Virus record (IMG/VR): IMGVR_UViG_3300034107_000725
Location: 32,001-96,000 of that record
Length of the DNA stretch: 64,000 nucleotides
Reading direction: 5' to 3' (one strand)
Source of the DNA: a virus
Shown here: one piece after another, positions 745 through 64,000 of the stretch
Position numbering within the stretch: the stretch's first letter is position 1
Layout of the letters: each line of letters begins with the position of its first letter
Notes under the pieces: generated by a model
The model's input: the letters and a program-made list of their open reading frames with translations, nothing else
The model's database searches: none
What the model was told of the DNA's origin: nothing
Position numbers and translations under genes: made by a program

Positions 745-768
745 TTGTAGCTCACGGAGGATCGGCGA

Positions 769-2685: not shown

Positions 2686-2776
2686 TGTGTGATAGGCTTG
2701 TAGCCTGCTAGAATACTACGATTGCCAAATCGATATCCTGGCGGGCACCAACACGCACAAAAGGCAGGCTCACAAT

Positions 2777-47432: not shown

Positions 47433-47843
47433 GTGTCAGCTTCACTTAATCTTTCGCAGGCTGTTGATGCTGTGGTGGCTTCTTACAAAGCCAGCGTAGC
47501 TGATGGGCGTTTGACGTTTCACGAAATACTGACATTGGTCTATAACGCTACAGCTACTTTCGTGAAACTGGTAGAATCGATAGATCAGCGACCTGGCGAT
47601 ACCAAAAAACAAGTCGTGCTCAATGCAATTGACTTGTTTTATGCTACCGTTGTAGCTCCTATCGACATTCAAGGTATACCTAACTTTCTGGAAGGTGCCA
47701 TGGATGCCGTAATCAAGGCATTTATCTTGGCACTGGCTAGTGCCTGGATCGACGCTATCGTCAACATCTTTAACAAAATTGGCTGGGGTGCCGAGACTAC
47801 GCCTTCAGGGGCTGCGGCTTTGCAAGCTCCACTGATTTTTTAA
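47433..47843 (+). CDS. Hypothetical helical protein
   Basis: AAGGAG RBS before a GTG start. Confidence 0.6.
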   Translation: MSASLNLSQAVDAVVASYKASVADGRLTFHEILTLVYNATATFVKLVESIDQRPGDTKKQVVLNAIDLFYATVVAPIDIQGIPNFLEGAMDAVIKAFILALASAWIDAIVNIFNKIGWGAETTPSGAAALQAPLIF

Positions 47844-47867
47844 AATCCGGAATTAAAGGAATACGAC

Positions 47868-48266
47868 ATGTCGCTGGTGATCGGTAATATGACTGGTGTG
47901 GTCTTCTTCGGACCCAGGGATCAACCTAAGGCGGTACGCTGGTGGGCTGAACGCGGACAACTACACTGGGAAGATTCCCGGACGAATGCATACGACACAG
48001 TGTCGGTTCGAGAATTCCTACTACGGCTACAGGGTATCAGTGATATGCTGTCCAATGGCCGTAAAAAAGAAAATCAAGGCTTCATGCACTCGGATGAAGT
48101 CGAGCGACATATGCGGTTTATCGAGGAAGCCTTAGAACTTGTACGGAAGGCCAAGGAACAAGGAATTCCGGAAGATCCCAAGGTACGAAGACACAAGGCG
48201 ATGGACCTCCCCGTCACAGTAGTGATGCCGTCTGCTTTGAACAGTGGTAAGGGTGTGACTTTCTAG
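47868..48266 (+). CDS. Hypothetical protein
   Basis: AAGGA RBS; colinear. Confidence 0.65.
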   Translation: MSLVIGNMTGVVFFGPRDQPKAVRWWAERGQLHWEDSRTNAYDTVSVREFLLRLQGISDMLSNGRKKENQGFMHSDEVERHMRFIEEALELVRKAKEQGIPEDPKVRRHKAMDLPVTVVMPSALNSGKGVTF

Positions 48267-48276
48267 GAGAGCAAGG

Positions 48277-48720
48277 ATGCAGACAAAAGAAGCGTTTAAA
48301 CTTGGATTTTTGGCTCGTTGTGTGGAAGAAGGCTTATCGCCAGAACAAACACACACGTTGGCCAAAATGGCAGCAGATCAGCTGGAAAAACGATCACTCA
48401 GTCCTAACCCACTAGGTTGGCTAACCGGACAGGTCACAGCTCCTGTCAAGAACATAACAGACGCCTATAAGGCGGTGCTTGACTCTGCTTCGTCTACTGT
48501 GCCCCTGGCGGCCTTAGCCATGGCGGTGCCTCCGGCTCTTGGCGGCTCTGCAGCTTGGCTCGCAAACCGAGCCACGGACACGGATGCCACAGATATTGAT
48601 CAGGTTAAGCAGAAAGAATTGTCGGATACATATCGTCGGATGGCGGCTCAAATGAACCGACAAAAGCAGCTGCGTAACTACAAGCAGGAACGCAAGCGAA
48701 CAGGTCGGGTCTACTTGTAA
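48277..48720 (+). CDS. Putative virion membrane-associated protein
   Basis: KEAF, KMA, EKRS; central hydrophobic helix. Confidence 0.6.
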   Translation: MQTKEAFKLGFLARCVEEGLSPEQTHTLAKMAADQLEKRSLSPNPLGWLTGQVTAPVKNITDAYKAVLDSASSTVPLAALAMAVPPALGGSAAWLANRATDTDATDIDQVKQKELSDTYRRMAAQMNRQKQLRNYKQERKRTGRVYL

Positions 48721-48728
48721 GGACTCAT

Positions 48729-49094
48729 ATGTCAAATAGCTTGGTGAAATTCACCAGCCGCAAGGATGGCAACGGCAGGGGTAATCTATACTGGGAACGG
48801 GCAGACGTGGATGGTCTACCGTTTCGAGGACACTCGGCTCCAACTTATCGAAATGAGGAGTTTGAGGATCGGGTTGTAAGGGTAGCTGATCCAAAGAATG
48901 GTACGTTCTACACCGGTGATCCGGAGCAAAACGCAGCTTATCTCAAGGTCATGGATGGAATTGCTAACTCTTGGTATCACATGGTATTTGTCGAGCGATG
49001 GCGAGCTGAAGGCGACAAGTACCATCATGTTTATGTAGAATGGCTGGAATACTTCCTGGAAGACGGGAAGCCCGCACCGTACGAGCCGAACTAA
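48729..49094 (+). CDS. Hypothetical protein
   Basis: AAGGA RBS; colinear. Confidence 0.65.
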   Translation: MSNSLVKFTSRKDGNGRGNLYWERADVDGLPFRGHSAPTYRNEEFEDRVVRVADPKNGTFYTGDPEQNAAYLKVMDGIANSWYHMVFVERWRAEGDKYHHVYVEWLEYFLEDGKPAPYEPN

Positions 49095-49106
49095 TTCAAC
49101 AAGGAT

Positions 49107-50000
49107 GTGACTATGGACGTTCGAACAGCAAAGGCGTTGCTTAAACAGATTCAACAGGTGAAGCAAGCAGAGACCGGAAATGTCACGGTGGCGGGTTTAC
49201 CTGCACCAGCATCACCAACTCCAACTTCGTTTTCTTTTCTGGCTCGTAATATGCCAAATTTGTTACCTGGCAGCCTGCCTAAAGATTTGGCTAAGCAACA
49301 AAATACTAAGCTACAGTCAGATACTCAAAAGGCCATCATTAGAACTATGATGTTGGCAGCTGGCGGAGGTGCTGCTGTGCGTGGACTTACAGGCTTAACT
49401 AATATGCTAGGCGAATCACCACAAATTGCCTCAACAGGTCGTACTGTAGAAATGCCTGTCGCATATGCCGAGGAGCCGAAACGTAAAAAAAGGATGAAAC
49501 AAGCAGAGGCATTCAAATCGAGTGTCGACACTTATAACCAGGGAGCTACAAACAAAATTGGGTTGAACTACTACATACCGGGCATGCTGATCGGCGGCGG
49601 GTTAGCGGCTTACGGCGGCTGGAAGGGTGTAGACCATCTGCTAGATGCTCAACGGCGTAAGCATACAAATGAGGACATGGAAGCAGCAAAACAGGAATAT
49701 GAAGACGCTCTGCTCGGGGCATATAAAAAAGCAACGGATACGGCACTAGATCAAACCTTTGAGCGTTATGAAAAACAAGCATATCTTGAGAATATACCGG
49801 GAGCTTTACAAGGTGCCGGACTGGCTTACACGGCAGCGTCACTTCCAATCGGTTACATGATCGTTAATGACATGATGAAAAAGAACAGCAAACAAGCCTT
49901 GTTACAAAAAGCTCTGCAAGAGCGAGCTCGTCGTCAAGCCATGACACAGCCACCAGAAATTTATGCGATTCCACACTCACCCAACGAGGAGAGCGAATAA
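49107..50000 (+). CDS. Putative virion protein with K-x-A motifs and hydrophobic Gly-rich helices
   Basis: KQA three times plus KKA; three hydrophobic segments. Confidence 0.6.
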   Translation: MTMDVRTAKALLKQIQQVKQAETGNVTVAGLPAPASPTPTSFSFLARNMPNLLPGSLPKDLAKQQNTKLQSDTQKAIIRTMMLAAGGGAAVRGLTGLTNMLGESPQIASTGRTVEMPVAYAEEPKRKKRMKQAEAFKSSVDTYNQGATNKIGLNYYIPGMLIGGGLAAYGGWKGVDHLLDAQRRKHTNEDMEAAKQEYEDALLGAYKKATDTALDQTFERYEKQAYLENIPGALQGAGLAYTAASLPIGYMIVNDMMKKNSKQALLQKALQERARRQAMTQPPEIYAIPHSPNEESE

Positions 50001-50003
50001 GCG

Positions 50004-53000
50004 ATGCAACCGCTCACGCCCAATCTGCTTGAGCCGGAATCCTCATCGCTGTTGACTCCGGCTGCATCTATCCAGCCGTTACCGCCTGCTCCCGATTATC
50101 GGGAGTTTGGTGATACGGTAAAAACGCGTTCACGTATTTATGACAACGTACTGAACGCGGCTAAGAACATACAGCCCGTGTCGAACGACCGCCACACACT
50201 TCGGTTGGCGGATGTGGATTACATGGATTCAGATCGGGTCAGCAAGCGGGATCAGAAGGCCGCTATTCTGAACGGCTTGACCCGCGGGCGAAGGCTACGT
50301 GGTACGTGGGAACTGGTGGACAACGCCAGTCAGCAGGTGCTTGATAGTAAGCGGTCTGTGCTTATGACCGTACCTCACCTCACCGAACGCGGTACGTTCA
50401 TTAACAATGGCACAGAGTACACATTAAAGAACCAACAACGCTTGCTCCCTGGCGTCTACACGCGGGAACGTGATAACGGTGAAATTGAATCACACGCAAA
50501 CGTCTTGCCGGGCAAGGGCGTGTCTCACCGTTATTTTCTAGACCCAGAAAAAGGGCAGTTCAAGATTCGCCTGGGACAAGGCACCGTCAGCCTGATGCCT
50601 TTGCTCAAGTCTATGGGTGCGACTTCAGAACAGATTAAAAATGCTTGGGGCAAAGATCTTTATGCCAGTAACTTCAACAGCGATGACGCTGGCGAACACA
50701 AGAAGCTCCGGGCCAAGTTTCTAAATGCTAAAGAGCTTCAAGGGGATGAGCAGGCACAGCGGGCAGCTCTTGTGCAAAAGTTTGCCAACATGGAGCTGGA
50801 CCCAGAAGTCACAAAGCGAACGCTGGGTAATCCACATGCAGGACTGACCCTGGACGCTGTGATGGATATTACCAAAAAGCTAATTCAGGTCAGTCGTCGG
50901 GAAGCCGAGCCGGATGATCGTGACGCGTTAACCTATCAGAGCTTCCTTGGCCCTGAAGATCTACTTGCAGAAAGAATTTCGCGAGATAAAGGTGGTTTAC
51001 GCCGTCAGCTTTTATGGCAAATGTCGGGGCAAGGCAACCTCCAAAAAATGCCATCTTCTGCCTTGCACAAGCAGCTTCAGGCTGCCATTATGGGTTCCGG
51101 GCTGGGTCAAGCGATCGAAGAAATTAATCCGGCAGAGCTGTACGACAAGTCAACAGCTGTGAGCCGCCTAGGCGAGGGCGGTATTCCTTCCACGGATGCT
51201 ATTCCTAAAGAATCGCGTAGCGTTCAGCCCAGTATGTTCGGATACGTGGACCCTGTGCGAACCCCAGAATCGGGCAAGGTAGGAGTGGACACCTACCTTG
51301 CTCGTGGGGCTCGCAAGGGTTCCGACGGCAAACTTTACGCTCAGTTTAACGACGTTAGAACCGGTGAAACCATTTACAAAACACCGCAAGCTGTTGCGGA
51401 TTTGACTTTGGGTTTTCCTGGAAGCATGCAGCAACTCGGGAAACGGGTAGCCGCTATGCGTAACGGAAAAATGGTCTACGTGCCAAAGCACGAGATAGAC
51501 TTAGAGTTACCAAGCATGGAAGAAGCGTTTAATCCGCTTTCCAACATGATACCTATGAAAAGCCAGGTCAAAGGTCAGCGACTGGTGATGGCGTCTCGAA
51601 TGACCACACAGGCGTTACCTATCGCAGGGGCCGAAGCTCCACTGGTTCAGTCGGCGATACCAGGCACAAACGGACAAAAGAGCTACGAAGAGCTTTATGC
51701 CGGTGCGATGGGTGCGTTACGTGCTCCGCAGGGCGGAACGGTGACCGGTGTAGACGATGACGGCATTCATGTGCGATACGAGGACGGTACTTCAGACACA
51801 CATGAGATGTATCAGAACTTCCCGTTTAACCGTAAAACTTTCATACATCAGACGCCAGTCGTAAGGCCTGGAGACCAGTTTGGTCCAGACCAGTTGCTGG
51901 CCCAGTCCAACTATACTGATAAGACAGGGGCAACGGCTTTAGGGCGTAACGCTCGTACTGCTTATGTCTCGTGGCAAGGCAAGAACTTTGAAGATGCCGT
52001 CGTAATTTCTGAAGGCTTTGCCCGGAAAATGGCTTCTGAGCACATGTATCAGAACAGTCTGGAAGTAGACGACAAGACTCAGCTGGGTAAGCATAATTAC
52101 ATTCAGAAGTTTCCTGGTAAGTTCGATAAGGCAACTTTGGCAAAAATGGATGATAGCGGCGTGATTAAGCCTGGAACGGTGGTACACTACGGCGATCCTC
52201 TCATTCTGGGAACTTCGCAGCGGGAAACCTCGTACAACAAAGTCCACAAAAAAGGACAGGCAGGACACACCGATGCAGCAATCATTTGGGATCATCACGA
52301 CGACGGGACCGTTACCGATGTGGTCATGGGCAAAACGGGACCGACTGTCGTTGTTAAAGCGACGTCAGCCATGCAAGTTGGCGACAAACTCTCTGGGCGG
52401 TACGGAGACAAAGGAGTCATTGCTGATGTCATCCCAGACCATCAAATGCCACATGATAGTGACAAACAACCCTTCGAAGTCCTGTTGAATCCACTTGGTG
52501 TCATCACCCGAACCAACCCGGCTCAGATGTCTGAGTTGTACCTGGGTAAACTAGCAGCCAAGCTGGGACGACCTATCAAGGTCCAAGACTTTGATTCAAG
52601 CAAAGACATGGGCGAATGGGTTTCACAAGAACTGGCCCGTGAAGGTTTGTCTGACTTGGAAGACATCAACGACCCGTCTAAAGATCAGAAGATCGGCGGT
52701 ATTGCTACGGGTCATCGGTTTTTTATGAAGCTGCACCACACGGCTGAGTCTAAGGGACAAAGCCGCGGTGGTGGAGCTTACACAGCGGATGATGCACCGG
52801 CTAAAGGTGGGTCAGAAGGCTCAAAGCGAATTGGGATGTTGGATACAAACGCCTTGTTGTCTCACGGAGCTACGGCAACGCTACAAGACGTGAGTGCAGT
52901 TCGTGGACAGAAGAATGACCAATACTGGATGCAGTTCATGTCCGGCTACAATCCAACAGCGTCCAAGGTACCGTTTGTGTATCAAAAGTTTGTCAATCAA

Positions 53001-54443
53001 CTCAAGTCTGCTGGTGTTAACGTCGTCAAGCAAGGCACACAGACAAACATCATGGCGTTGACGGATAAGGATGTGGATGAGCTGGCCGGTGATCGCGAAC
53101 TCCAAAACGCGGAAGGCGTAGACTGGAATAAGGGGCTCAAGGAAATTTCTGGCGGCTTGTTTGACAAGTCGAAGACCGGAGGTCACGGGGGCAATCGTTG
53201 GAGCTATATCAAGCTGCACGAGCCGTTGCCAAACCCGGTGATGGAAGAACCCATCCGGCGTATGCTAGGTTTGACACAGAAACAGTTTCAAGGCGTAATC
53301 TCAGGCACGGAACCGTTATCTAAGTACGGCACAGGTCCGCAGGCTTTACAAAAGGCCCTGTCCGGAATGAATGTTGATGCTGAGATTGAGAAAGCCCGTA
53401 ACGCTATTTCAGCGGGTCGGGCCTCAGACAGGGATGCGGCGGTGAGGAAGCTAGGATACCTGAAGAGTGCTAAAAAGCTGGGTCTCCATCCTGGCGATTA
53501 CATGCTTACAAAAGTGCCTGTTCTGCCTCCTATGTTTCGACCCGTCAGCATGATGTCAAACGATATGCCACTGATTAACGATGCTAACTACCTTTACAAA
53601 GAGTTATTTGAGGCAAATAACAACCTCAAAAGCATTCAGAGCGAATTAGGACATGAAGCATCCGGGCTGGAACGAATGGCGGCGTACAATGCCTTCAAAG
53701 CTGTCACGGGTTTAGGCGATCCAATTAGCCAGAAAAGTCGAGATAAGAACGTCAAAGGTGTGCTTCAGTCTGTGTTTGGTTCCAGCCCCAAGTTCAGTAC
53801 ACTACAACGCAAACTGATTTCCACCACTGTGGATAACGTCGGGCGGGCGGTGATCACCCCCAATCCGGATCTGGACATGGATTCGGTCGGCCTGCCCGAA
53901 GAGAAAGCCTTCAAGGCGTATGAGAAGTTCGTCACCCGGCGGCTGGTCCGTCAGGGTATGTCGATGAGAGTGGCTCGCGAACACATTGCAAACAAATCGA
54001 AGCTGGCACGCAATATTCTGCTTGAGGAGATGGATCATCGTCCGGTATACATCAGCCGGTCTCCTGTTCTTCACAAGTTTGGGATTTTGGCAATGAAGCC
54101 AAGACTAACCAAGGGTGATACACTTCAGGTTAGCCCTCTCATCGTTAAAGGCTTTAACGCTGACTTTGATGGCGATGCTATGAATTATCACGTACCGAGC
54201 ACAGAAAAGGCCCGACAAGAAGCTCTTGACCGACTTCTACCTAGCCGAAACTTGTTCAGTCTGTCAGACTTTAAATCCGTGATGCACGCTCCGGCAAACG
54301 AGTTTGTCGGCGGTTTGTACCACGCTACGAAATCCGTTAGCGATCGCCCTAAAAAGATCTTTCGATCGCTACAGGATGCTAAGCGGGCCTACGCACGGGG
54401 CGATATTTCTATCGACGATCGCGTGCAAATCCTAGAATCTTAA
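50004..54443 (+). CDS. Multi-subunit RNA polymerase: beta subunit fused to the N-terminal half of beta'
   Basis: Beta motifs GTFINNGTE, RTPESGKVG, NFEDA, GDKLSGRYGDKG, LLNPLG, MKLHH; beta' motifs VPVLPPMFRP, GRAVITP, SRSPVLHK and catalytic NADFDGD (54156-54176). Confidence 0.95.
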   Translation: MQPLTPNLLEPESSSLLTPAASIQPLPPAPDYREFGDTVKTRSRIYDNVLNAAKNIQPVSNDRHTLRLADVDYMDSDRVSKRDQKAAILNGLTRGRRLRGTWELVDNASQQVLDSKRSVLMTVPHLTERGTFINNGTEYTLKNQQRLLPGVYTRERDNGEIESHANVLPGKGVSHRYFLDPEKGQFKIRLGQGTVSLMPLLKSMGATSEQIKNAWGKDLYASNFNSDDAGEHKKLRAKFLNAKELQGDEQAQRAALVQKFANMELDPEVTKRTLGNPHAGLTLDAVMDITKKLIQVSRREAEPDDRDALTYQSFLGPEDLLAERISRDKGGLRRQLLWQMSGQGNLQKMPSSALHKQLQAAIMGSGLGQAIEEINPAELYDKSTAVSRLGEGGIPSTDAIPKESRSVQPSMFGYVDPVRTPESGKVGVDTYLARGARKGSDGKLYAQFNDVRTGETIYKTPQAVADLTLGFPGSMQQLGKRVAAMRNGKMVYVPKHEIDLELPSMEEAFNPLSNMIPMKSQVKGQRLVMASRMTTQALPIAGAEAPLVQSAIPGTNGQKSYEELYAGAMGALRAPQGGTVTGVDDDGIHVRYEDGTSDTHEMYQNFPFNRKTFIHQTPVVRPGDQFGPDQLLAQSNYTDKTGATALGRNARTAYVSWQGKNFEDAVVISEGFARKMASEHMYQNSLEVDDKTQLGKHNYIQKFPGKFDKATLAKMDDSGVIKPGTVVHYGDPLILGTSQRETSYNKVHKKGQAGHTDAAIIWDHHDDGTVTDVVMGKTGPTVVVKATSAMQVGDKLSGRYGDKGVIADVIPDHQMPHDSDKQPFEVLLNPLGVITRTNPAQMSELYLGKLAAKLGRPIKVQDFDSSKDMGEWVSQELAREGLSDLEDINDPSKDQKIGGIATGHRFFMKLHHTAESKGQSRGGGAYTADDAPAKGGSEGSKRIGMLDTNALLSHGATATLQDVSAVRGQKNDQYWMQFMSGYNPTASKVPFVYQKFVNQLKSAGVNVVKQGTQTNIMALTDKDVDELAGDRELQNAEGVDWNKGLKEISGGLFDKSKTGGHGGNRWSYIKLHEPLPNPVMEEPIRRMLGLTQKQFQGVISGTEPLSKYGTGPQALQKALSGMNVDAEIEKARNAISAGRASDRDAAVRKLGYLKSAKKLGLHPGDYMLTKVPVLPPMFRPVSMMSNDMPLINDANYLYKELFEANNNLKSIQSELGHEASGLERMAAYNAFKAVTGLGDPISQKSRDKNVKGVLQSVFGSSPKFSTLQRKLISTTVDNVGRAVITPNPDLDMDSVGLPEEKAFKAYEKFVTRRLVRQGMSMRVAREHIANKSKLARNILLEEMDHRPVYISRSPVLHKFGILAMKPRLTKGDTLQVSPLIVKGFNADFDGDAMNYHVPSTEKARQEALDRLLPSRNLFSLSDFKSVMHAPANEFVGGLYHATKSVSDRPKKIFRSLQDAKRAYARGDISIDDRVQILES

Positions 54444-54473
54444 CCAGATCAGATTGACAAGGAGATCATAACG

Positions 54474-55187
54474 ATGGGACTGAACCTCGAGCTTCTTAAA
54501 CAAGCCCGATATAACGTACGGGAGCTGGAAAAATCAGCATTTGTAGCTGCCGGTGACCCGTCAATGGGTGGAGATCCTGCGGCTATGGCTGGTGGCGGTG
54601 CTCCTCCTATGGACCCAGCTATGGCTGGCGGTGCCCCTCCAATGGATCCGGCGATGGCTGGCGGTGCCCCTCCAATGGATCCGGCGATGGCGGGTGGTGC
54701 TCCTCCTATGGATCCGGCGATGGCTGGCGGCGGCGATCCAATGGCTGCAATCATGCCGATGATTCAGCAAGCGGTACAGCAAGCAATGGCAGCCAACGGT
54801 GGCGGCGGTAGTGGTCCACAAGCAGGCGGGCCCGGAATCAAACCCAAGATCGACGTCAACGTCGAAATCATGCAGATGAAGAAGATGTTGGCCAAGATGA
54901 TGGACGCCATGGGAATCCACATGCCCGTAGCCGACATGGTGGCCACACCAGAAGATCTCAATCAGATTGCACAAGGTGGAGCCGGTTTCGCCGCAGCTAC
55001 GCCTGATAACGGTGGCGGACTGGGAGCCATCAAGCCGATACAGGCTATGAAGGCCGCAGAAGACTGGGAAAGCGGTGTAGCCTTTACACCTCCTTCCGAG
55101 AATTCATTCCAGCAGTCACACAACGTCACAAGAAGTACGGCAAACATGGCAACAGCGTTATTGCTGCGTAACCGTATGACGGGTTGA
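54474..55187 (+). CDS. Low-complexity Met/Gly/Pro/Ala protein with tandem repeats
   Basis: AAGGAG RBS; KQA, KSA, KAA; MDPAMAGGAPP repeats. Confidence 0.7.
   Translation: MGLNLELLKQARYNVRELEKSAFVAAGDPSMGGDPAAMAGGGAPPMDPAMAGGAPPMDPAMAGGAPPMDPAMAGGAPPMDPAMAGGGDPMAAIMPMIQQAVQQAMAANGGGGSGPQAGGPGIKPKIDVNVEIMQMKKMLAKMMDAMGIHMPVADMVATPEDLNQIAQGGAGFAAATPDNGGGLGAIKPIQAMKAAEDWESGVAFTPPSENSFQQSHNVTRSTANMATALLLRNRMTG
54609..54740 (+). repeat. Coding tandem repeat, 4 x 33 bp (MDPAMAGGAPP)
   Basis: Units start at 54609, 54642, 54675 and 54708, differing mostly at third codon positions. Confidence 0.9.
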
Positions 55188-55203
55188 GCAGAAGGACAGT
55201 TCG

Positions 55204-55428
55204 ATGTTCTTTGTCGAGATATTGGAAAGTATCGGGAAGCCTCCCTTGCGGGTGGAGGCTTCTCAGGTGGTTATTCGAATGGCTGACGGTACTCCCGTCA
55301 GTGTAGCTGCGGTCTTTGGCACTGCAAGCAGTGTTTTGGTTTCACACTGTGAAGACCCAAACTTTAACGCAAACTTGCGTAAGCTGGGCATCAATGAAAC
55401 CGTTATCTCTACTAGACTGAAGGTATGA
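55204..55428 (+). CDS. Small hypothetical protein
   Basis: AAGGA RBS; tightly packed. Confidence 0.65.
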   Translation: MFFVEILESIGKPPLRVEASQVVIRMADGTPVSVAAVFGTASSVLVSHCEDPNFNANLRKLGINETVISTRLKV

Positions 55429-55429
55429 C

Positions 55430-56140
55430 ATGTCCGACCCGACACGATCTGCTGATAAGGCTTATTACGCTTCCCGAACTCCGTTAGATATACGGGGCAC
55501 TCGCGAAGGGCGATCAAATCCGCCAAAATTCCCAAGCTATCAGCACAAAGGTTACGACTCCACCGCGTCGTCTGACAAATACTATGCGGTGCAACCGGCT
55601 AAAGTGGATGCTCCTGTAGCTCAGGCCGTGCGGCAGAAACCTGCACGGAACACAGTAGCACAGAAAACCGAGCTGATTATCACAGATACGGATAATCTGT
55701 TACGGCGGTTAAGCGATATACTAAGAGATAACGATGTTGAGGTCGTTGTTAAAGGCGATGCAGAATTGATCCGACAGGCACGAATGATTTTGGATTTATC
55801 TGTAGGCCGAAACGAGTTTACACGACAGCAGGCAGACTCTGTGTCATTCGCGGTGGTTGAAGCAAAGATCACAGTACCCGACGTAGCGGTTGTGGACGTA
55901 GCACCAGAACCAGTAGTAGAGGTAGCCGCAGAGCCAGAGCCAGTAGCAGAACCGGAACCAGAAGTAATTCCGGAGCCCGTGATACGGGATGAAATTGCTG
56001 AACTTCTGGCAGCACCAACACCGGTTGTCAAAAAAAGTAAGCCTAAGCAGGTCAGACAGGCCAAGAAGCCCGAGGCTAAAACTATCACGGAAGATGACAT
56101 CGCTGCCGCTCTTGGCCTAGGCGATGATAGCGACGACTAA
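55430..56140 (+). CDS. Hypothetical protein with a Pro/Glu-rich C-terminal linker
   Basis: Colinear ORF; EPEP repeats. Confidence 0.65.
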   Translation: MSDPTRSADKAYYASRTPLDIRGTREGRSNPPKFPSYQHKGYDSTASSDKYYAVQPAKVDAPVAQAVRQKPARNTVAQKTELIITDTDNLLRRLSDILRDNDVEVVVKGDAELIRQARMILDLSVGRNEFTRQQADSVSFAVVEAKITVPDVAVVDVAPEPVVEVAAEPEPVAEPEPEVIPEPVIRDEIAELLAAPTPVVKKSKPKQVRQAKKPEAKTITEDDIAAALGLGDDSDD

Positions 56141-56152
56141 GAGGCTGTTTGC

Positions 56153-59100
56153 ATGCTGAATACGACTGTCGGCCAACTGTTGGTAAACGAATCACTGCCT
56201 GAAGACTTGCGGGACTATAACCGAGTCCTGGACAAGAAAGGTATGGGTGCGTTGTTACAGCAGGTGGCTCGACAGTATCCAGAAAAGTACCGTGAAGTGT
56301 CGTTTCAGCTGAGTCAGGTTGGGCAGAGGTCAGCTCAAGACCAGGGGGGTATGTCGTTCGGCATGCGTCACCTGAAACGAAGTAAGATCGCCAACGAAAC
56401 TCGGAAACGGATTCAGGGGCAGCTAGACAACATCTTGTCTGATGACTCGCTCACAGATCAGCAACGCAACGATCTGATTGTGAAAACAGTTGGACGTGAG
56501 AGCGAACCGCAGCAGAAGGCAGTGCTGGAAGAAGCCATTCAAGCCAAGAATCCGTTAGCAATGCAAGTGCTTTCAGGTAGCCGCGGTAAGCCTATGAATC
56601 TTGCCAGCTTGCTGGCAGCAGATATGCTGTACTCGGACCACAGGGATGAGGTTATTCCAATTCCGGTGCTTCGCAGTTACAGCGAAGGCTTGTCCCCGGA
56701 AGAATACTGGGCTGGAACTTATGGTGCTCGTCGCGGGATCATCGCAACTAAGTTTGCCACTCAGGAAGCGGGATTTCTGAGCAAACAGTTAAATCAAGCA
56801 GGTCACCGGCTGGTCGTAATGGGTGAAGAGGGTGACGAAGATCCGGAAGCACCTACTCGGGGTTTGGTCGTTGATACTGACGACATGGACAACGAGGGTT
56901 CGCTTTTGGCTCGGGACGTAGGACCGTACAAGCGAAACACCCCACTTACCCCCAAGATTCTCAAACAACTACAGCGACTTGGCAAAAACCGGATTTTAGT
57001 CAGGTCGCCGATGGTTGGTGGTTCTCCTGAGGGTGGTGTTTATGCTCGAGACGTTGGTATCCGTGAACACGGTACCTTGGCAGGGTTAGGCGAGCAGGTC
57101 GGACTTCAGGCAGCTCAGGCTTTGTCTGAACCGATTAGCCAAGGGCAGCTTTCGGCAAAGCACTCTGGCGGCGTTGCCGGGCAGGAAAAGGCGGTTGGTG
57201 GATTCCAATACATCAATCAGCTGATTCAAACGCCCAAGAAGATGCAGGGTGGAGCTGCTCACTCTACATTGGACGGTACGGTGCAGCGAGTAGAACCTGC
57301 TGCTGCCGGTGGGTTCAACGTAACGATTGACGGCAAGCCGCACTATGTAGGTGAGGGCTTTGGTGTCAAAGTTAAAAAAGGGGATAACGTCGAAGCCGGG
57401 GATGTGCTTAGCGACGGTATTCCCAATCCAGCGGTCATCACTCAGTACAAAGGTGTTGGTGAGGGTCGCCGTTACTTTGTCAACGAATTCCGCAAAGCTA
57501 TGTCAGCTAGCGGTATGCAGGGACACCGCCGCAACATTGAGTTGCTGGCACGCGGATTAATCAATCACGTTAAGCTCACGGAAGAGACTGACGATCATGC
57601 TCCGGACGATATCGTCCCGTATTCTACGTTGGAGCATACATACAAGCCACGGGAAGGCCATGAGCGTCTAACGCCCAAAAAAGCGTTGGGCCAGTATCTG
57701 GAACGTCCGGTGTTGCACTACACCATTGGCACTAAGATTCGCCCGTCGATGCTTAGAGACTTCGATGATTTCGGAGTCCAGGCAATCCCGGTGCATAAGA
57801 ATCCGCCACCGTTCGAGCCACATATGGTACGAGGTATGTACCAAATGCAGCACGATCCGGATTGGATGACCCAGATGTACGGTTCCGGACTCAAAAAGAG
57901 TCTGCTGGAATCCACAGCACGTGGAGCAACCAGCGAGGAACGGGGTACCAGCTTCATCCCCAGCTTGGCGTCAGGCACTGATTTTGGCGAAGTCCCAGAT
58001 CGTGCAGTGATTCAGCCTAAGCCTGCATATTCATTGCCTAAAGTATCCATTCCTGACTTGGAGCCTGAAAATTCAGGATCCACGTTCTTTGGAGGCCGAT
58101 ACAAAGTAGGCATGCAAAAAAGGGCGGTAGAAGCGACCCCACCCAAAGTCGAGGCTCCGGCCTCCACATCTATGTCGGCTCCTACCGCCCCTACTCCCTC
58201 CCCGTCGAATGCCGCAGAGTTGGGTAGCAATAATATTATGTCCCCGGCTACAACTGTCCAGCCCAAACTGGATACAGTGACTCAGCCGATTCAACCGCCA
58301 GCGGATATACCACAGGCAAGCCAGACTCCTAGAGCAAGCCAGACTCCTCCAGCCAGTCAACCGCCGCCAGCCAGTACACCAGCACAGGTTCGGGCAGATG
58401 TGATGCAGGCTTCAAGAACCGCAACTCCGCCTCCGATTCAAGAACCTTTGCCGCAGATTAAAAGACCGTCAACTAAGATGCCAGAGCTATCTACTGGAAC
58501 CGCATCCACTTCTCGGCTAACCAGTTCTCGGCTAGGCTCACAAACAGCAGGCATTCCATGGTGGCGGGCAACAGCAAAGCCGACAGACACGACATGGAAT
58601 AAAACAGAAAATACCGAATTCCATTCTCAGCCTAACTCTGTGTTAGGTGCGACACCGTCTGTGGCCAACCTGGCTGCGAGTCGTTCCTACGCACCAGAGC
58701 CTCCAGCTGCACCTGTAAAGGGTTATGCAGATTATGCTCAAGACGCCTGGGACGCGTTTAAAAACCCTGTAACAACGATTAGTAATCAACTCTACGGTAC
58801 GCCGGAACCTACTGCGGGTAACTCGTTTTCCGATGATGGAAATCTGTTGGCTCGCTCTGGGGTAAATATGGGTCTTAAACAAATGATGGGCCGCTCTGCC
58901 CCGGCTGCGATTACTGCAGCAGCTGAAGCTGCAGTTCCATTGTCTCGGGTGGGTCGATTGGCAGCCGGAGCTCGAGCTTTGTTGCCGGGGTTTTTACCTG
59001 GGGCCAGACTGGCAGCCGGAGGTGCCGCAAGTGCTGCGGGTGGTCTATCTTTGGCACCGGCAGCGATAGGCTTTGCTGCGGTTAACGCAGGCACTGAGCT

Positions 59101-59335
59101 GCTTGACGCAGGCGGTCTTTTGCCAGAATGGGCGGGTGGAGATGGTTGGGGTACTATGGGCTGGGATCAAACTGGCTTCGAAAACGACTTTAAAGATCGG
59201 AGTATACCGGGGGCTGCCTTACATACCGTTATGAACCCACTTAAAAGCATATGGGCTGGCGGTACACGACTAGGTGATGCAGGTTATAGGGGAACGAGCT
59301 GGCTGTACGACAAGTTTAGAGGCGGGGCAAAATAG
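56153..59335 (+). CDS. RNA polymerase beta' C-terminal half with a ~400-aa non-RNAP extension
   Basis: TTVGQ, SGSRG, bridge helix TYGARRGIIATKFATQEAGFLSKQL, trigger loop AAQALSEPISQGQLSAKHSGG, GDVLSDG; then a P/S/T-rich linker and Gly/Ala hydrophobic tail. Confidence 0.9.
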   Translation: MLNTTVGQLLVNESLPEDLRDYNRVLDKKGMGALLQQVARQYPEKYREVSFQLSQVGQRSAQDQGGMSFGMRHLKRSKIANETRKRIQGQLDNILSDDSLTDQQRNDLIVKTVGRESEPQQKAVLEEAIQAKNPLAMQVLSGSRGKPMNLASLLAADMLYSDHRDEVIPIPVLRSYSEGLSPEEYWAGTYGARRGIIATKFATQEAGFLSKQLNQAGHRLVVMGEEGDEDPEAPTRGLVVDTDDMDNEGSLLARDVGPYKRNTPLTPKILKQLQRLGKNRILVRSPMVGGSPEGGVYARDVGIREHGTLAGLGEQVGLQAAQALSEPISQGQLSAKHSGGVAGQEKAVGGFQYINQLIQTPKKMQGGAAHSTLDGTVQRVEPAAAGGFNVTIDGKPHYVGEGFGVKVKKGDNVEAGDVLSDGIPNPAVITQYKGVGEGRRYFVNEFRKAMSASGMQGHRRNIELLARGLINHVKLTEETDDHAPDDIVPYSTLEHTYKPREGHERLTPKKALGQYLERPVLHYTIGTKIRPSMLRDFDDFGVQAIPVHKNPPPFEPHMVRGMYQMQHDPDWMTQMYGSGLKKSLLESTARGATSEERGTSFIPSLASGTDFGEVPDRAVIQPKPAYSLPKVSIPDLEPENSGSTFFGGRYKVGMQKRAVEATPPKVEAPASTSMSAPTAPTPSPSNAAELGSNNIMSPATTVQPKLDTVTQPIQPPADIPQASQTPRASQTPPASQPPPASTPAQVRADVMQASRTATPPPIQEPLPQIKRPSTKMPELSTGTASTSRLTSSRLGSQTAGIPWWRATAKPTDTTWNKTENTEFHSQPNSVLGATPSVANLAASRSYAPEPPAAPVKGYADYAQDAWDAFKNPVTTISNQLYGTPEPTAGNSFSDDGNLLARSGVNMGLKQMMGRSAPAAITAAAEAAVPLSRVGRLAAGARALLPGFLPGARLAAGGAASAAGGLSLAPAAIGFAAVNAGTELLDAGGLLPEWAGGDGWGTMGWDQTGFENDFKDRSIPGAALHTVMNPLKSIWAGGTRLGDAGYRGTSWLYDKFRGGAK

Positions 59336-59416
59336 TGTTTGGGTTGCGATGTTAGCCCACGTCGGGCTAAACTGAGTTATCCATCTATCTCTTTTTGTAA
59401 AATCCAGGTGATCAGG

Positions 59417-59641
59417 ATGTTCAACGGAATAATGCTTGGCGGTATCAGCGAGAAGTATGCGGGTGCTTACCTCTTGCCTCCAGCCAAACGGAAGAAGAAA
59501 AAGCCACAACCCGATGAAGTTGATCCAGAAGTGCTGGATAAAGTGGCATCTGCCGTTGTGCGTAATCAACAGGCTATCATGCAACAACAACTGGCGGCAG
59601 GCGACCTGGGCGGCGGCTGGAATCCATACGACCAAGTCTAA
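59417..59641 (+). CDS. Small hypothetical protein
   Basis: AGGA RBS before ATG 59417; KYA and KVA motifs. Confidence 0.55.
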   Translation: MFNGIMLGGISEKYAGAYLLPPAKRKKKKPQPDEVDPEVLDKVASAVVRNQQAIMQQQLAAGDLGGGWNPYDQV

Positions 59642-59691
59642 GCCAACATCACTTCTCTGGAACTGACGAGCTGTTGCTCACGGAAGGGACC

Positions 59692-62199
59692 ATGCAAACA
59701 CAACTGAATAAGACAGCCGCCCTCGGCGGCAGCGGCGGCGAAACCGAATTTGAACAGGCTTTTTCTAGCCTGGCCTATGCCTATCTACGGGATAAAGCCC
59801 CACGGTTGCTAGATTTCATGGTCGGTTTTCAACTAGTCGACCGCAATGAAGATAACACCAAAGCGATGGGTATCTTCGGATTTCAAGTTGGCAAGCAGTG
59901 GCTATATGCCCCAGTGTTCTTCTTAAACGGCGATCTCAAAGGTCACGAGTTGCTCTACATGAAGAACAACGACTCCTTTGTGCCGCTGAAGGAAAACTGG
60001 ATTAACTACATTATGAGCCGCAAGCCCCACATCTTGGGCGAGCAATCTGCCTCAAAGTTGCGAGAGCTTGGTGGCGTTTATCCGGATATCCGGACGCTTT
60101 CAATCCCACCTTCAATTGGTGGTGGCAAGCGTGCCAGTGATAACAGCTGGCTTCAAGGCGTGATGCCGATGCTGGCTGCTTTCAAAACCAAAGCGGCTAG
60201 CTCACTCTATCGTGGAGCAGGGAACCGCAAGCTCAATCAAGCTGCTGTAGTTGCCGATCCGTTCGGTGCCGCTTTGGCAAAGCAGGCTTCAATTCTGGAT
60301 TTTAACAACGTCATGCCACAGAGTCTGGAACTGATCAAGATGGCTCACGCTATCTCTGAACGGTACCCGACAATCAAACTGGCGATGCAGAAGTTCTACG
60401 GTGTAGACTGCTTCTCACGCTGGAGCAAAGACCTGCGTAACAACCTGGAGAAGGAAGCCAGCAACATTCTGCCCGTGCAGATTGCGGCCAAACCTTATAT
60501 GCCGGGCAATTTGTTGATCCCAACAGAACGACCAGCCGGACCAATCGATCACGTCAAGCAGGGCAAACTCAATCTGGATGCTCCAGAATACGTGTTTGAA
60601 CGTGGTGGATTTATTGTCGATACGCTTGATGTCAGATTCCAGGTTGAACGGGAATCTGCCGGTATTACAGACAGTCGTGCCGACGACGAAGTATCGAAGG
60701 CTTACAACACTCAAGTTGACGTGCGGATGACCAATCCAACCGAAACCAACTTGTACCGTGTGCTGGAACGTCCAGGCAAGTTCAGCAAGATGCTGGTTGT
60801 GATGCACGGCAGCAGCAACCGTGGACGAGAACCATTTGCCACGTTGGTACGACTGGAAGACAACGGCGACGGTGGTGATAAGGCCTGGCTCAACAGCCAT
60901 GCCACCAACATCTTTGCCGATCAGACCGCGGAACGCGATGAGTGGCGGGAATGGTTTGAAAGCCTGCCAGGCTCGGAATCGTTGCAAGACGGCGGTGAAT
61001 ACATCGCAGTTTCCGAGGATGGCTCGGGTACTGTGCCGTTCCATGTGCAGTCTAACTACGGCGACGGACGTCACCGTGTGGACTTCCGCACTCACGTCAA
61101 CTTCGACGAAGCTCGGCCCAGCACGATGCCTCGTTTGCAGAAGATCACCGATCCGTTTACGGAGGAAGGTTATCACATGCCGAGCACGTACGGTGCCATG
61201 CTGTACACCGATAAAGAGGGCAAGAAAGGTACACGGCTGCGAGCAATTGCCGGTGAGCTTCGCGTGCCTGACTCTTTCAAGTTCCTTAAGCTATCGGAAC
61301 CGCAAAAGCCCAGATCTGGCGAATTGATGCCTTGCTCCAATTACAACAGCCGCAGCGACATGCCGCCGATTCAGCTTGGTAAGATCGACGACATCCAGCT
61401 CTTCTTCTACGAAAAGACGGCTGGGTTGCAGTTGTTAAACAACAGCACAGACGTCTACATTGACTCGGTGCTGGGTTCAGAGCGGGTCAGTCTTAAAGAA
61501 GCCGCGTGGCATCTGGTAAGCGTGCATGGTCTTCGCGAGAAGGCAGCTCGTGAGCTGCTGGAACAGTCAGAACGTAAGGGCAAAACCAGTTACCGGATCG
61601 AGTATGCTCCGGGTTACGGCAATCAAAAGCAGGCTGGACCAAACGACAGCGTGCTGGCTGGCGGCCCAGATGCCCCAATCTTTGACGACTTTGCTGAAGA
61701 GCGAAGTGTTGAAAACTACGGGCCTCGTACTTCTGCTCCAACTCAGTACGGCGGTGAAGCTGCTTACCGTTTGAACCACTTGAGTGCAGATCAAACTGAC
61801 CCAGGTGTATGGAACCCATGGCAGAACTACGAAGCAGAAGACTTCCAGAAGAATGTACAGAAAGCTCAACAGGCTGGAGCACAGGGACAGAAGGAAGTCT
61901 TTGATACTTCGATGATCTCCGGTATGCTCAAGTCCGTTCGGCAGGATTCGCTGGTTGAACGTCACCTGGCTCCGCTGGTTGAATCTTTAGACGCCTTAGG
62001 CCGCCTGTTGATGAACTTCTACTGGCACGGCGAAGAGTTTGAAGATCGCTATGGTAAAAGCGATATGCCTGAGCTGGAAGATAGCCTTCGAAATTCCTTC
62101 GAGGCCTTGGGTGATGTTACGCTCTTCCTGAAAGAGAAAACTGTCGAATCGCCGTTTGATAGCGGTGATGTCAATCTCGAAGAAACTTCAAGGAACTAA
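59692..62199 (+). CDS. Large putative virion protein with periodic K-x-A motifs
   Basis: KTA near the N-terminus, then KAA, KQA, KEA, KTA, KQA; conserved-looking N-domain (GFQLVD...PVFFLNG). Confidence 0.7.
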   Translation: MQTQLNKTAALGGSGGETEFEQAFSSLAYAYLRDKAPRLLDFMVGFQLVDRNEDNTKAMGIFGFQVGKQWLYAPVFFLNGDLKGHELLYMKNNDSFVPLKENWINYIMSRKPHILGEQSASKLRELGGVYPDIRTLSIPPSIGGGKRASDNSWLQGVMPMLAAFKTKAASSLYRGAGNRKLNQAAVVADPFGAALAKQASILDFNNVMPQSLELIKMAHAISERYPTIKLAMQKFYGVDCFSRWSKDLRNNLEKEASNILPVQIAAKPYMPGNLLIPTERPAGPIDHVKQGKLNLDAPEYVFERGGFIVDTLDVRFQVERESAGITDSRADDEVSKAYNTQVDVRMTNPTETNLYRVLERPGKFSKMLVVMHGSSNRGREPFATLVRLEDNGDGGDKAWLNSHATNIFADQTAERDEWREWFESLPGSESLQDGGEYIAVSEDGSGTVPFHVQSNYGDGRHRVDFRTHVNFDEARPSTMPRLQKITDPFTEEGYHMPSTYGAMLYTDKEGKKGTRLRAIAGELRVPDSFKFLKLSEPQKPRSGELMPCSNYNSRSDMPPIQLGKIDDIQLFFYEKTAGLQLLNNSTDVYIDSVLGSERVSLKEAAWHLVSVHGLREKAARELLEQSERKGKTSYRIEYAPGYGNQKQAGPNDSVLAGGPDAPIFDDFAEERSVENYGPRTSAPTQYGGEAAYRLNHLSADQTDPGVWNPWQNYEAEDFQKNVQKAQQAGAQGQKEVFDTSMISGMLKSVRQDSLVERHLAPLVESLDALGRLLMNFYWHGEEFEDRYGKSDMPELEDSLRNSFEALGDVTLFLKEKTVESPFDSGDVNLEETSRN

Positions 62200-62202
62200 G
62201 CA

Positions 62203-62856
62203 ATGGCTTCAGGTTATTCACGGGTTGTCCCGTTCTCTATCATCTGTGGCACTCCAGCTTGTATCGAGCTTCCAGCACCGCCTCGCGGCGTGCTGGAACG
62301 CTTAATCATTACACAAAAAGCTGGGGATCCAGAAGCCGCGATTATCAATGTTTATGATCGTAAAGGGGCTTGCATTGCCGCCAGCGATCTGAATGTGACT
62401 GAGTCCGGCCTAGTGGCTACCATAGGAAATGATACGGGGTTTACCGCCGTAGCGTTTTCAGCTGATCATCATTTGATTGTAGGCAATCAAATTGAGATCA
62501 AGGGCAGTGATGTGACAGACTACAACACCGACCATTTGATTGTGGAAGTGGCCGACACTGACATAGTGATTACGGATGTGGCCTACACTGCTAACGGTAC
62601 GGGAGGATTGTGGCAGACGCTACCATTCAATCCAACCAACAAGCCGATCACGCATTTGATGCTGACAGCTAACGTGACTAGCGGTGAAGATCTTGTGCTG
62701 TTCGATATTCATCGAGCTTACGAGAACAAAGACAATCAAAGCGAAACGATGCGATGCCGCCATTCGTCTCTCTGGTTGGAATTTCTAACCGTAGGTGCAG
62801 TGGAGCCCAGTGATTGGGAAGTTGCATACACCTGCCAGGCAGATACTGTAATTTAA
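62203..62856 (+). CDS. Hypothetical beta-rich protein
   Basis: AAGGA RBS; colinear. Confidence 0.65.
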   Translation: MASGYSRVVPFSIICGTPACIELPAPPRGVLERLIITQKAGDPEAAIINVYDRKGACIAASDLNVTESGLVATIGNDTGFTAVAFSADHHLIVGNQIEIKGSDVTDYNTDHLIVEVADTDIVITDVAYTANGTGGLWQTLPFNPTNKPITHLMLTANVTSGEDLVLFDIHRAYENKDNQSETMRCRHSSLWLEFLTVGAVEPSDWEVAYTCQADTVI

Positions 62857-62866
62857 GGGGAGCTGT

Positions 62867-63877
62867 TTGAAGGTCTACAGGGACATAAGACTCGCTGATC
62901 CATTTCTTCGTCCGTACTGGCGTCATGAACGCGTAGTACGGATGTTAGGTAGCGTGCCTCCAGCACGGTGTCGGCGATATGACGATATCTGGATTCAAGA
63001 GTACAAGAAGTTCTTATTTGCATGGCGACGCGGTGTAGAGCATCGCGAACGCCTGCTTTATGAGAACCCGGGCTTGTACTATGCTTACAACCTGTATGAC
63101 CGCATGCATATTGAGCCAGACATGGCTCTCATGATTGAAGCTCGCCTGTTAGCGGGAAGCACTCCGGAAATGATTGCAAACGAGTGCAAGACCATTCCGG
63201 AAACAATCGAGTGGTACGAACGTCTGTTTTTCAACGTATTGGACTTTCTACCTCATCACGATTGGATTCTTAAAAACGTACTCCTACCCGCGTCTGATCG
63301 TTTTGTCGACCCTTCGATTGACGCAGTCACGAGCCTGAGAAATCCCACGGAAATCGTGCGACCATACCTGGACATGACACTGAAATTTTTCGCTTACTTT
63401 GGCGGACCGCTCGTTTGCGATATCATGATAAGTGGATTTCGACGTAACAACCAGGTTCAAAATCCAGAAGATCTTACGGACTACTTCAACGATCATTTTG
63501 CCAGTCAGCTACAACGCCGCAGTGCTCAAGCTGCCGGACAGTTTGAAATCAACAAGTACAACATCATGGAGTTGTTCACAACTCACACGAGACTTATTGA
63601 AGTGCAAAGATCCGGCAAGAATCCCGAAAATCGACACAACGATTTTGAAATGAACATCAACGAAATGTTGACCGCAATTCCTTGGACTGCCGGTAAGGCC
63701 AGCAAGACTCTGTATGAAGGTTCTATGATTGGACTGTATGATGACAGTGCGATCGAACTGGATTCGGAAGAAACAATCTTAACTGGTGTAGGTATGGAAT
63801 TGGAATCAGCCAGAGAAGCCAAAGCCACTCGAGTTTACAGCCAGGGGGAGCCACAACGCGATGCAAAGTCTAAGTAA
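62867..63877 (+). CDS. Hypothetical protein
   Basis: GGGGAG RBS before a TTG start; 336-aa ORF. Confidence 0.7.
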   Translation: MKVYRDIRLADPFLRPYWRHERVVRMLGSVPPARCRRYDDIWIQEYKKFLFAWRRGVEHRERLLYENPGLYYAYNLYDRMHIEPDMALMIEARLLAGSTPEMIANECKTIPETIEWYERLFFNVLDFLPHHDWILKNVLLPASDRFVDPSIDAVTSLRNPTEIVRPYLDMTLKFFAYFGGPLVCDIMISGFRRNNQVQNPEDLTDYFNDHFASQLQRRSAQAAGQFEINKYNIMELFTTHTRLIEVQRSGKNPENRHNDFEMNINEMLTAIPWTAGKASKTLYEGSMIGLYDDSAIELDSEETILTGVGMELESAREAKATRVYSQGEPQRDAKSK

Positions 63878-64000
63878 ATCGGACGAGCAGAAACTACTGG
63901 ACGGAGTCAAACAGGCTGTAGCCTTGGTTGACGATAAGGGTCTGACACCAGATGCCGCTTTGCAAAAAGTAGCAGAAGACCTGCAATATTCCCCCGGTTT
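63861..64000 (+). CDS. 3'-truncated protein (MQSLSKSDEQKLLDGVKQAVALVDDKGLTPDAALQKVAEDL...)
   Basis: GGGGGAG RBS; open to the window end; KQA and KVA motifs. Confidence 0.6.
   Translation, partial: MQSLSKSDEQKLLDGVKQAVALVDDKGLTPDAALQKVAEDLQYSPG

Follow-up and report, generated by a model that had tools for sequence, protein, structure and literature searches.

What kind of RNA polymerase is encoded by a phage gene that runs from beta directly into beta' and then stops halfway? The question is raised by a locus in the IMG/VR virus record IMGVR_UViG_3300034107_000725 (193,990 bp, estimated to be 94% complete), of which we analyzed bases 32001-96000. This 64-kb stretch is hereafter called the window, and coordinates follow its numbering unless marked 'genome'. 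In the window, one gene encodes all of beta together with the N-terminal catalytic half of beta', and a second, separate gene encodes the C-terminal part of beta' (beta'C). This fused-and-split layout of a multisubunit RNA polymerase (msRNAP) is the hallmark of a very large phage clade, which includes hundreds of uncultured phages and a few isolates. The polymerase genes, their parts, and the open reading frames (ORFs) that separate and flank them all lie on the plus strand.

Both polymerase ORFs were characterized by Pfam profile matches, by sequence comparison with solved structures, and by alignment to E. coli RpoB and RpoC, the check that the initial annotation of this DNA had proposed, and all of these give a beta::beta'N protein plus beta'C. 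The fusion gene (50004-54443) starts with ATG and encodes a protein of 1479 amino acids (aa), here called chain 1. Its Pfam matches run in the order Rpb2_3 and Rpb2_6 (beta), then Rpb1_1 and Rpb1_2 (beta'). Residues 120-1034 match solved bacterial beta subunits with a best E value of 2e-64, and residues 1082-1476 match residues 142-562 of beta' or 184-557 of cyanobacterial gamma. The beta part (50004-53030), with fork and Rif-region homology, is complete; the E. coli insertions SI1 and SI2 are missing from it, and its flap tip is shorter by 8 residues. The pair of active-site lysines in the beta barrel, GDK..GNKG in E. coli, is present as GDKLSGRYGDKGV at residues 793-805 (a GDK..GDKG motif at nt 52380-52418; Rpb2_6 E 6e-46). 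The initial annotation had described a 1479-aa ORF that passes from beta into beta' near 53020-53060 and continues through NADFDGD, and the alignment agrees, placing the junction at 53028-53049, where ..AGVNVV leads to ..IMALTD via approximately five residues. According to the alignment with E. coli, beta ends (E. coli residue 1342) at about residue 1009 of chain 1 and the equivalent of beta' residue ~20 follows at about residue 1015; what the junction lacks is the C-terminal tail of bacterial beta and ~20 residues at the start of beta'. In the same alignment, the deletion of the beta' zinc-binding domain (E. coli C70, C72, C85, and C88) maps to 53148-53216. The NADFDGD catalytic loop follows at 54156-54176 (residues 1385-1391), and chain 1 ends with ..VQILES and a stop (54414-54443), which corresponds to E. 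coli beta' residue ~553.

The window enzyme is not a complete beta-beta' fusion, since a stop follows ..VQILES and beta'C starts 1709 nt downstream. This second gene (56153-59335) encodes 1060 aa (chain 2) and matches Rpb1_5, with residues 2-492 aligning to beta' of solved structures from ~552-659 on. Chain 2 starts M-L-N-T-T-V-G-Q, equivalent to E. coli beta' residue ~570. Its core (56153-57997) opens with TTVGQ and comprises the bridge helix (56705-56791), the trigger loop (57101-57181), and the last conserved beta' block (57833-57988), which ends at about residue 612; the bridge helix and trigger loop had been expected in a second ORF 1.7 kb on, and this is where they are. The remaining 445 aa (57998-59335, residues 616-1060) form a C-terminal tail, in which a P/T/S/A-rich linker precedes a Gly/Ala-rich hydrophobic module (approximately residues 885-1055). 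The module is common to many tail-bearing relatives (35-57% identity), and its peak 19-residue hydropathy of 1.53 is borderline for a membrane helix. The whole tail is missing from the nearest relative (L014) and from gp216 of Salmonella phage Arash. Taken together, the window enzyme has the beta-barrel lysines, NADFDGD, bridge helix, and trigger loop of a bacterial-type msRNAP, and it lacks the whole, separate beta and beta' accompanied by alpha2 and omega, as well as the two beta' zinc sites.

Rpb2_6, Rpb1_2, and Rpb1_5 each have one match in the genome, and the fused-and-split enzyme is the only RNA polymerase recognizable there. No T7-type polymerase was matched in the genome, a weak negative as the control for that family found nothing anywhere. 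Alpha (PF01000 and PF01193) and omega (PF01192) had no match in the 194-kb genome. The earlier statement that no alpha, omega, or sigma gene is visible holds for the window, but a sigma-70-type gene is present elsewhere in the genome. A tblastn search with Arash gp10, which is annotated as a sigma factor, revealed it (E 1e-15) beyond the window, approximately 53 kb downstream, at genome 139070-139804 (244 aa). The encoded protein matches Pfam Sigma70_r3 (29.7 bits, with a cut-off of 25.3) and is similar to regions 2-3 of SigA, RpoD, and RpoS in the PDB (E 7e-6); Sigma70_r2 had no match in the genome. Homologues of this protein number 193, some of which also match Sigma70_r4, and they include ones on contigs of 204,384, 204,794, and 233,405 bp, sizes equal to those of polymerase-bearing contigs.

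The initial annotation pictured a lone event, which is not what a survey of related contigs found: the same uninterrupted junction is present throughout a very large clade. A query with the junction region (residues 850-1350) retrieved more than 120 clusters at 90% identity, whose fusion proteins are 57-99% identical and approximately 1475-1490 aa long. In these clusters PF00562 and PF00623 occur together in one protein, which never has PF04998. For beta'C, too, more than 120 clusters show a separate protein, of approximately 620-665 aa, or of approximately 980-1340 aa with a tail. An exhaustive profile-free search gave at least 150 clusters at 50% identity (44-67% identical among the matches listed), and in most of the intein-free clusters listed a single match spans the junction. 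Overall, relatives are encoded on at least 515 IMG/VR contigs, and the gene order around the polymerase pair is conserved across related loci. The layout is shared by four isolates: Arash, where gp206 has 1525 aa and gp216 has 606 aa, and Vibrio phages D69, D148, and D181. When the layout is defined by two proteins, a beta::beta'N of approximately 1450-1530 aa that ends before TTVG and a separately encoded beta'C of 600 aa or more, the window enzyme falls within it.

These numbers bear on two explanations that would make the layout only apparent. An assembly artefact at the junction, a concern raised at the outset, is excluded by the 515 or more contigs and the four isolates. Since the same open frame recurs in hundreds of independent assemblies as well as in these isolate genomes, and since every catalytic motif is intact, an artefact of assembly or sequencing, or a gene in decay, has a negligible probability. 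Alternatively, a split intein could link the two products once they are translated, or the gap could be an intron, and the functional enzyme would be a single chain. Inteins are indeed very common in relatives' copies of both genes. On the other hand, chain 1 ends and chain 2 starts at exact homologous beta' positions with no intein-like extra residues, the three ORFs in the gap are conserved and none is a homing-endonuclease gene, and gp206 and gp216 of Arash were identified as separate proteins (PMC10585845). The two genes are, moreover, far apart in some relatives: two records, each at least 94% complete, place beta'C approximately 21 kb and 83 kb away from the fusion gene. The fusion gene and beta'C are truly independent genes, and on all of these grounds joining into one chain is very improbable. 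As for the inteins themselves, relatives' products reach up to 3350 aa with LAGLIDADG and intein-splicing Pfam matches, and match break points recur at positions including the one directly after NADFDGD (approximately residues 1393-1400). A homing-endonuclease gene lies inside the fusion-gene region of D181 and D148. Both polymerase genes of the window are intein-free.

Fusion and cut each have counterparts in known systems. In Helicobacter and Wolbachia, rpoB and rpoC are joined in one frame, giving complete beta-beta' fusions in cellular genomes that also have alpha and omega. The RpoC1/RpoC2 proteins of cyanobacteria and plastids likewise result from a cut of beta' in the linker after the catalytic barrel. 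As had been pointed out from the TTVGQ that opens the second gene, the cyanobacterial cut is a different one: it follows TTPGR, RpoC2 starts approximately 10-12 residues further on, and residues 21-23 of the window beta'C ORF match RpoC2 residues 9-12. Furthermore, cyanobacteria and plastids have beta as a separate gene and possess alpha, omega, and the zinc sites, unlike the window enzyme. Among phages, the phiKZ/AR9 enzymes cut beta' after the same barrel domain (PMC7598289), and in Ralstonia phage RP13 and E. coli phage IME392 the N-terminal piece of beta' stops approximately 35 residues upstream in the same linker, with the C-terminal piece starting correspondingly earlier. The phiKZ/AR9, RP13, and IME392 polymerases resemble the window enzyme in having no alpha or omega; however, their beta is split rather than fused, and they are much more divergent. 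The phiKZ/AR9 type has two polymerase sets, of which one version is packed in the virion, uses no sigma, and has beta in two or three pieces (PMC7598289, PMC7824862). According to these descriptions it differs from the window genome, which has one polymerase set, a sigma, and a whole beta. Thus, the earlier view that phiKZ-type enzymes are split differently is fully right for beta and right only in detail for beta', which is cut in the same linker. Cutting the beta' linker is a recurrent solution, and what is distinctive here is its combination with a whole, fused beta.

In which order fusion and cut arose can be addressed with five more distant loci (32-35% identity) in which a single ORF of 2057-2119 aa covers beta and all of beta'. 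They include L087, L091, L092, L094 (a 162-kb contig in the bin of a Leptolyngbyaceae metagenome-assembled genome, MAG), and L095 (a 204-kb contig in a Bacteroidales MAG bin), where a single-chain ORF of 2869 aa is taken to include inteins. Their sequence is continuous through the position at which the window enzyme is cut. They share with the window enzyme a homologous beta/beta' junction and the loss of the first zinc domain, and differ from it in the uncut beta' and the retention of the second zinc site. A maximum likelihood tree was inferred from 44 rows and 2006 columns (IQ-TREE quick search, LG+G4), comprising 20 split phage enzymes, 4 single-chain enzymes, and 20 bacterial RpoB+RpoC pairs as the outgroup, a limited bacterial sample; 28 rows failed the composition test. 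The phylogeny suggested in the initial annotation was in this way obtained for cellular and related phage enzymes, with the phiKZ/AR9 type, which it had also named, left out, together with mReC, Helicobacter, Wolbachia, and two phage sequences (RHph_Y65 and 1.031.O, described below). In the Shimodaira-Hasegawa-like approximate likelihood ratio test (SH-aLRT), the phage clade received a support of 100, the split group (n = 20, including Arash, D69, and the window) 96, and its single-chain sister (n = 4) 93.

Because the single-chain sister group shares the junction and because beta' of the bacterial outgroup is unsplit, an order in which the beta-beta' fusion came first and the cut of beta' second is favoured, though not settled. 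Under this order, beta and beta' would have been fused in the common ancestor of the whole phage clade, where the first zinc domain would also have been lost; beta' would then have been cut once, before TTVG; and the crown group that includes the window would later have lost the second zinc site as well. Two points count against this order. An alternative tree, with Arash and D69 placed outside a group of single-chain and crown split enzymes, is 23.7 log-likelihood units worse and is not rejected by the approximately unbiased (AU) test (p 0.084), and the tree itself is a quick LG+G4 search with a limited bacterial sample at the root. The cut could instead be ancestral, inherited from a split polymerase similar to those of RP13, IME392, or phiKZ, with the single chains arising by secondary re-joining, as might be expected from other phage polymerases that are cut in the same linker and from the same AU result. 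Yet the exact cut differs by the ~35 residues noted above, and the window enzyme is far closer to bacterial beta' (E 1e-34) than to RP13 and IME392 (E 1e-13 to 1e-14). Further, the best tree resolves split and single-chain enzymes as sister groups, and with an unsplit bacterial outgroup two events (fusing and cutting) suffice where an ancestral cut needs three. We therefore regard an ancestral cut as a rather improbable alternative to fusion followed by cutting. The original proposal of an independent fusion-plus-split event in a phage lineage stands as regards a bacterial-like msRNAP made of beta::beta'N and a separate beta'C, but fusion and split look like two events instead of one.

Bacterial-like beta and beta' have been reported in phages before. 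Uncultured tailed phages of the mReC type (Weinheimer and Aylward 2020) were found with COG0085 and COG0086 models by a filter that demanded at least 800 aa each for beta and beta' and NADxDGD in the COG0086 protein; every entry consulted in the supplementary table lists beta and beta' as separate proteins, and the capsid and terminase families are PF07068 and PF03237 (PMC7481178). In the window layout, NADFDGD sits in the beta-bearing protein. The capsid protein of the window genome has no PF07068 match, and its terminase matches PF05876, not PF03237. Because of the separate beta and beta' in the entries consulted, the NADxDGD filter, and the other capsid and terminase families, the window clade is probably not mReC, and it probably would have escaped the mReC screen. 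A search of IMG/VR for mReC-type sequences with a bacterial beta' alignment query returned only six bacterial-like fragments.

The closest described systems are the isolates Arash, D69, D148, and D181 (OQ632216, OZ195729, OZ196545, OZ196140), which share with the window enzyme the fusion, the position of the cut ahead of TTVG, and the absence of the first zinc domain, and which also encode a gp10-like sigma. As in the window phage, their polymerase genes are beside head genes. The Arash-type enzymes are 25-29% identical to the window enzyme and, in contrast to it, keep the four cysteines of the second site. In Arash, nine genes on both strands lie between the polymerase genes and a helicase gene comes right after beta'C, whereas the window has three ORFs in the gap. 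The possibility that an identical architecture had already been described is therefore realized in part: it is deposited for these four phages, but the Arash paper calls gp206 'beta' and mentions no fusion (PMC10585845). No description of the fused-and-split layout was found in open-access papers and preprints on phage rpoB-rpoC fusions, mReC follow-ups, and jumbo-phage reviews. New here are the single-chain sister group, the clade-wide loss of the first zinc domain, the loss of the second zinc site in the crown group, the distant beta'C genes, and the sigma gene outside the window.

Other arrangements were also encountered. L096, a 7.1-kb contig in an 'uncultured bacterium' bin, carries an ORF (164-4855) of 1563 aa that runs from E. 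coli beta residue ~497 through the end of beta to beta' residue ~939, and a 398-aa ORF comes next. The 1563-aa protein shares 27% identity with the window fusion protein, and its cuts are in different places. The cultured Rhizobium phage RHph_Y65 (MN988525) and the cultured Vibrio phage 1.031.O (MG592415) have an unsplit beta'-like gene of 1127 and 1263 aa, respectively, and no Pfam Rpb2_6 match anywhere in their genomes; their beta partner is either very divergent or absent.

The distribution of the zinc sites follows the tree. The first site is deleted in all the phage enzymes aligned, whether beta' is cut or not. The single-chain group, Arash and D69, and also L069 and L090, the next-branching split lineages after these two, retain an intact second site (E. 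coli C814, C888, C895, and C898). This second site has been replaced in the crown group that contains the window, where the four cysteines have become G, G, Y, and D in the window beta'C. On this alignment, the pattern fits the tree as one late loss. Cysteine is, moreover, missing altogether: neither chain 1 nor chain 2 (2539 residues together) nor the sigma-like protein contains a single one. With 1.4% cysteine in the rest of the genome, approximately 30 would be expected in the 2094 conserved polymerase residues (P ~1e-13). Cysteine is likewise absent from 51 of 78 fusion proteins and from 39 of 56 beta'C proteins at related loci, and the fusion proteins of relatives that do have cysteine are mostly intein carriers. 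Separately, the rpoC of L098, a Candidatus Saccharibacteria MAG, has lost the cysteines of both zinc sites (P, D, I, and N at the first; N, A, P, and S at the second), and a zinc-free beta' is therefore not restricted to phages. Several other large proteins of the window phage are poor in cysteine as well, namely those encoded in the window at 16843-18477 (544 aa, none) and 22003-24594 (863 aa, one) and at genome 97224-98396 (390 aa, none), 99935-101272 (445 aa, none), 105906-114998 (3030 aa, three), and 131073-136076 (1667 aa, none). They may be further ejected or virion-internal proteins.

Given an enzyme of this composition, at what stage of infection might it act? The polymerase genes are on the head-gene strand, with a portal homologue upstream (769-2685) and homologues of Arash gp218 (of weak similarity), gp222, and the major capsid protein downstream. 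Sigma-70 promoter-like and terminator-like sites in 46000-64000 are at background level, with no excess. The position on the head-gene strand and the lack of such an excess fit late expression, and late co-expression with head genes is sensible for a polymerase carried into the next host. The virion polymerases of N4 and phiKZ are a precedent for late-made, carried-in enzymes. In purified Arash virions, gp206 was top of all proteins with 3516 spectra, gp216 had 1210, and the sigma gp10 had 467 (PMC10585845). Because the genes lie in a head-gene block and both chains and the sigma are abundant in Arash virions, we consider it fairly likely that the window phage has a packaged, sigma-dependent, alpha-less two-chain polymerase that is delivered with the DNA. 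In such an enzyme, chain 1 (beta plus beta' through the catalytic barrel module) and chain 2 (the bridge helix, trigger loop, and C-terminal part of the clamp) would form the catalytic core, and the core would combine with the phage's own 244-aa sigma to give a holoenzyme without alpha, omega, or a zinc site. The covalent link between beta and beta' may do the work of the alpha dimer in assembly. The polymerase would be produced late, alongside the head proteins, and would be placed in the capsid and brought into the next host together with the DNA, where it could carry out early, and perhaps all, phage transcription with no need for the host RNA polymerase. Loss of the zinc sites and of cysteine would suit an enzyme that passes through the tail and refolds.

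Several observations speak against packaging and have to be set beside it. The Arash authors suggest a role in early transcription and also allow for carry-over of abundant proteins, and 116 of 252 proteins were found in their particle preparation, including ribonucleotide reductases and ligases (PMC10585845). The portal homologue has 6 cysteines, and cysteine loss is thus not general to virion proteins here. Finally, no phage promoter motif was recovered: k-mer enrichment in 60-73 intergenic stretches of the genome yielded only Shine-Dalgarno words, T runs, and a weak CTAGCT signal. The main alternative is a non-virion polymerase, comparable to T7 RNA polymerase or the phiKZ non-virion enzyme, which the host enzyme would make after infection and which would transcribe middle and late genes; its presence in Arash particles would then be carry-over, as the authors' own caution and the many metabolic enzymes in the particle proteome would allow. 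However, the position in the head-gene block suits late expression; a middle-gene polymerase made at that time would come too late unless it travelled into the next cell. The highest spectrum count of all belongs to gp206, with the sigma present too, and the total loss of cysteine from three proteins is hard to explain for a purely cytoplasmic enzyme. A non-virion polymerase thus appears unlikely, and packaging is the reading we retain. With regard to the weak motif, CTAGCT, often as A/C-CTAGCT-C/T, occurs 34-45 nt upstream of several start codons (for example at 41523 in the window and at genome 101291 and 137336) with an approximately 6-fold intergenic enrichment; as a phage promoter element it is a weak candidate.

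A wider reading, which we put forward tentatively as possible rather than probable, would extend packaging to the whole clade. All members would have their own sigma and a minimal zinc-free, cysteine-free polymerase, made of two chains or, in the sister group, of one; this enzyme would need neither alpha nor omega, would be packed in the capsid, and would be ejected through the tail. It would make these aquatic and enteric phages of 160-235 kb independent of the host RNA polymerase from the first minute. The passage from single chain to two chains to loss of the last zinc site would then be a stepwise adaptation to packaging and ejection.

The phage msRNAPs described so far are of two kinds, the divergent, many-piece phiKZ/AR9 type and the mReC type with separate beta and beta', and the fused-and-split enzyme constitutes a third layout. 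It is close enough to bacterial enzymes (25-30% identity) for modelling, yet has no alpha, omega, or zinc site, and has a covalent link where bacteria depend on alpha for assembly. Since Arash and the Vibrio phages are in culture, assembly without alpha, the packing and ejection of a large protein, and the role of the phage sigma are open to direct tests. The split and single-chain sister groups provide a natural experiment on the tolerance of beta' to being cut. For annotation, the fusion gene is now labelled just 'beta' or 'hypothetical', and an mReC-style filter would miss it.

The 1709-nt gap between the polymerase genes contains three small ORFs. The first (54474-55187) encodes 237 aa rich in Met, Pro, Ala, and Gly, and many relatives likewise have it between the two genes; its repeated GGAPPMDPAMA peptide is encoded by 4.6 tandem copies of a 33-bp unit (54593-54744). 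The second (55204-55428; 74 aa) is conserved in 14 related loci. It was considered as a possible small subunit and set aside: its predicted small, beta-rich fold is confident (predicted local distance difference test score, pLDDT, 90.8) and has no PDB match. The third (55430-56140) encodes 236 aa, acidic and Pro-rich, and is found in the closest relatives only. Upstream, a 297-aa ORF (49107-50000) that ends 3 nt before the fusion gene is conserved only in nearer relatives; it has no Pfam match, and its Atlas matches are below the noise level. Downstream, an 841-aa ORF (59674-62199) follows beta'C directly in approximately 50 of 80 related loci. It is weakly similar to the Arash virion protein gp218, and its predicted fold is moderate (pLDDT 65.7), with no meaningful PDB match.

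In Arash, the helicase gp217, whose gene directly follows beta'C, is abundant in virions with 1148 spectra (PMC10585845). Its homologue in the window is a 691-aa helicase (19353-21428; 33% identity, E 7e-58) that is encoded 30 kb upstream of the polymerase genes. At the level of the whole record, which is classed as linear without end repeats, genome positions 1-127 recur at 193470-193596, approximately 520 nt from the terminus, and this 127-nt recurrence suggests a terminal repeat or a circular assembly.

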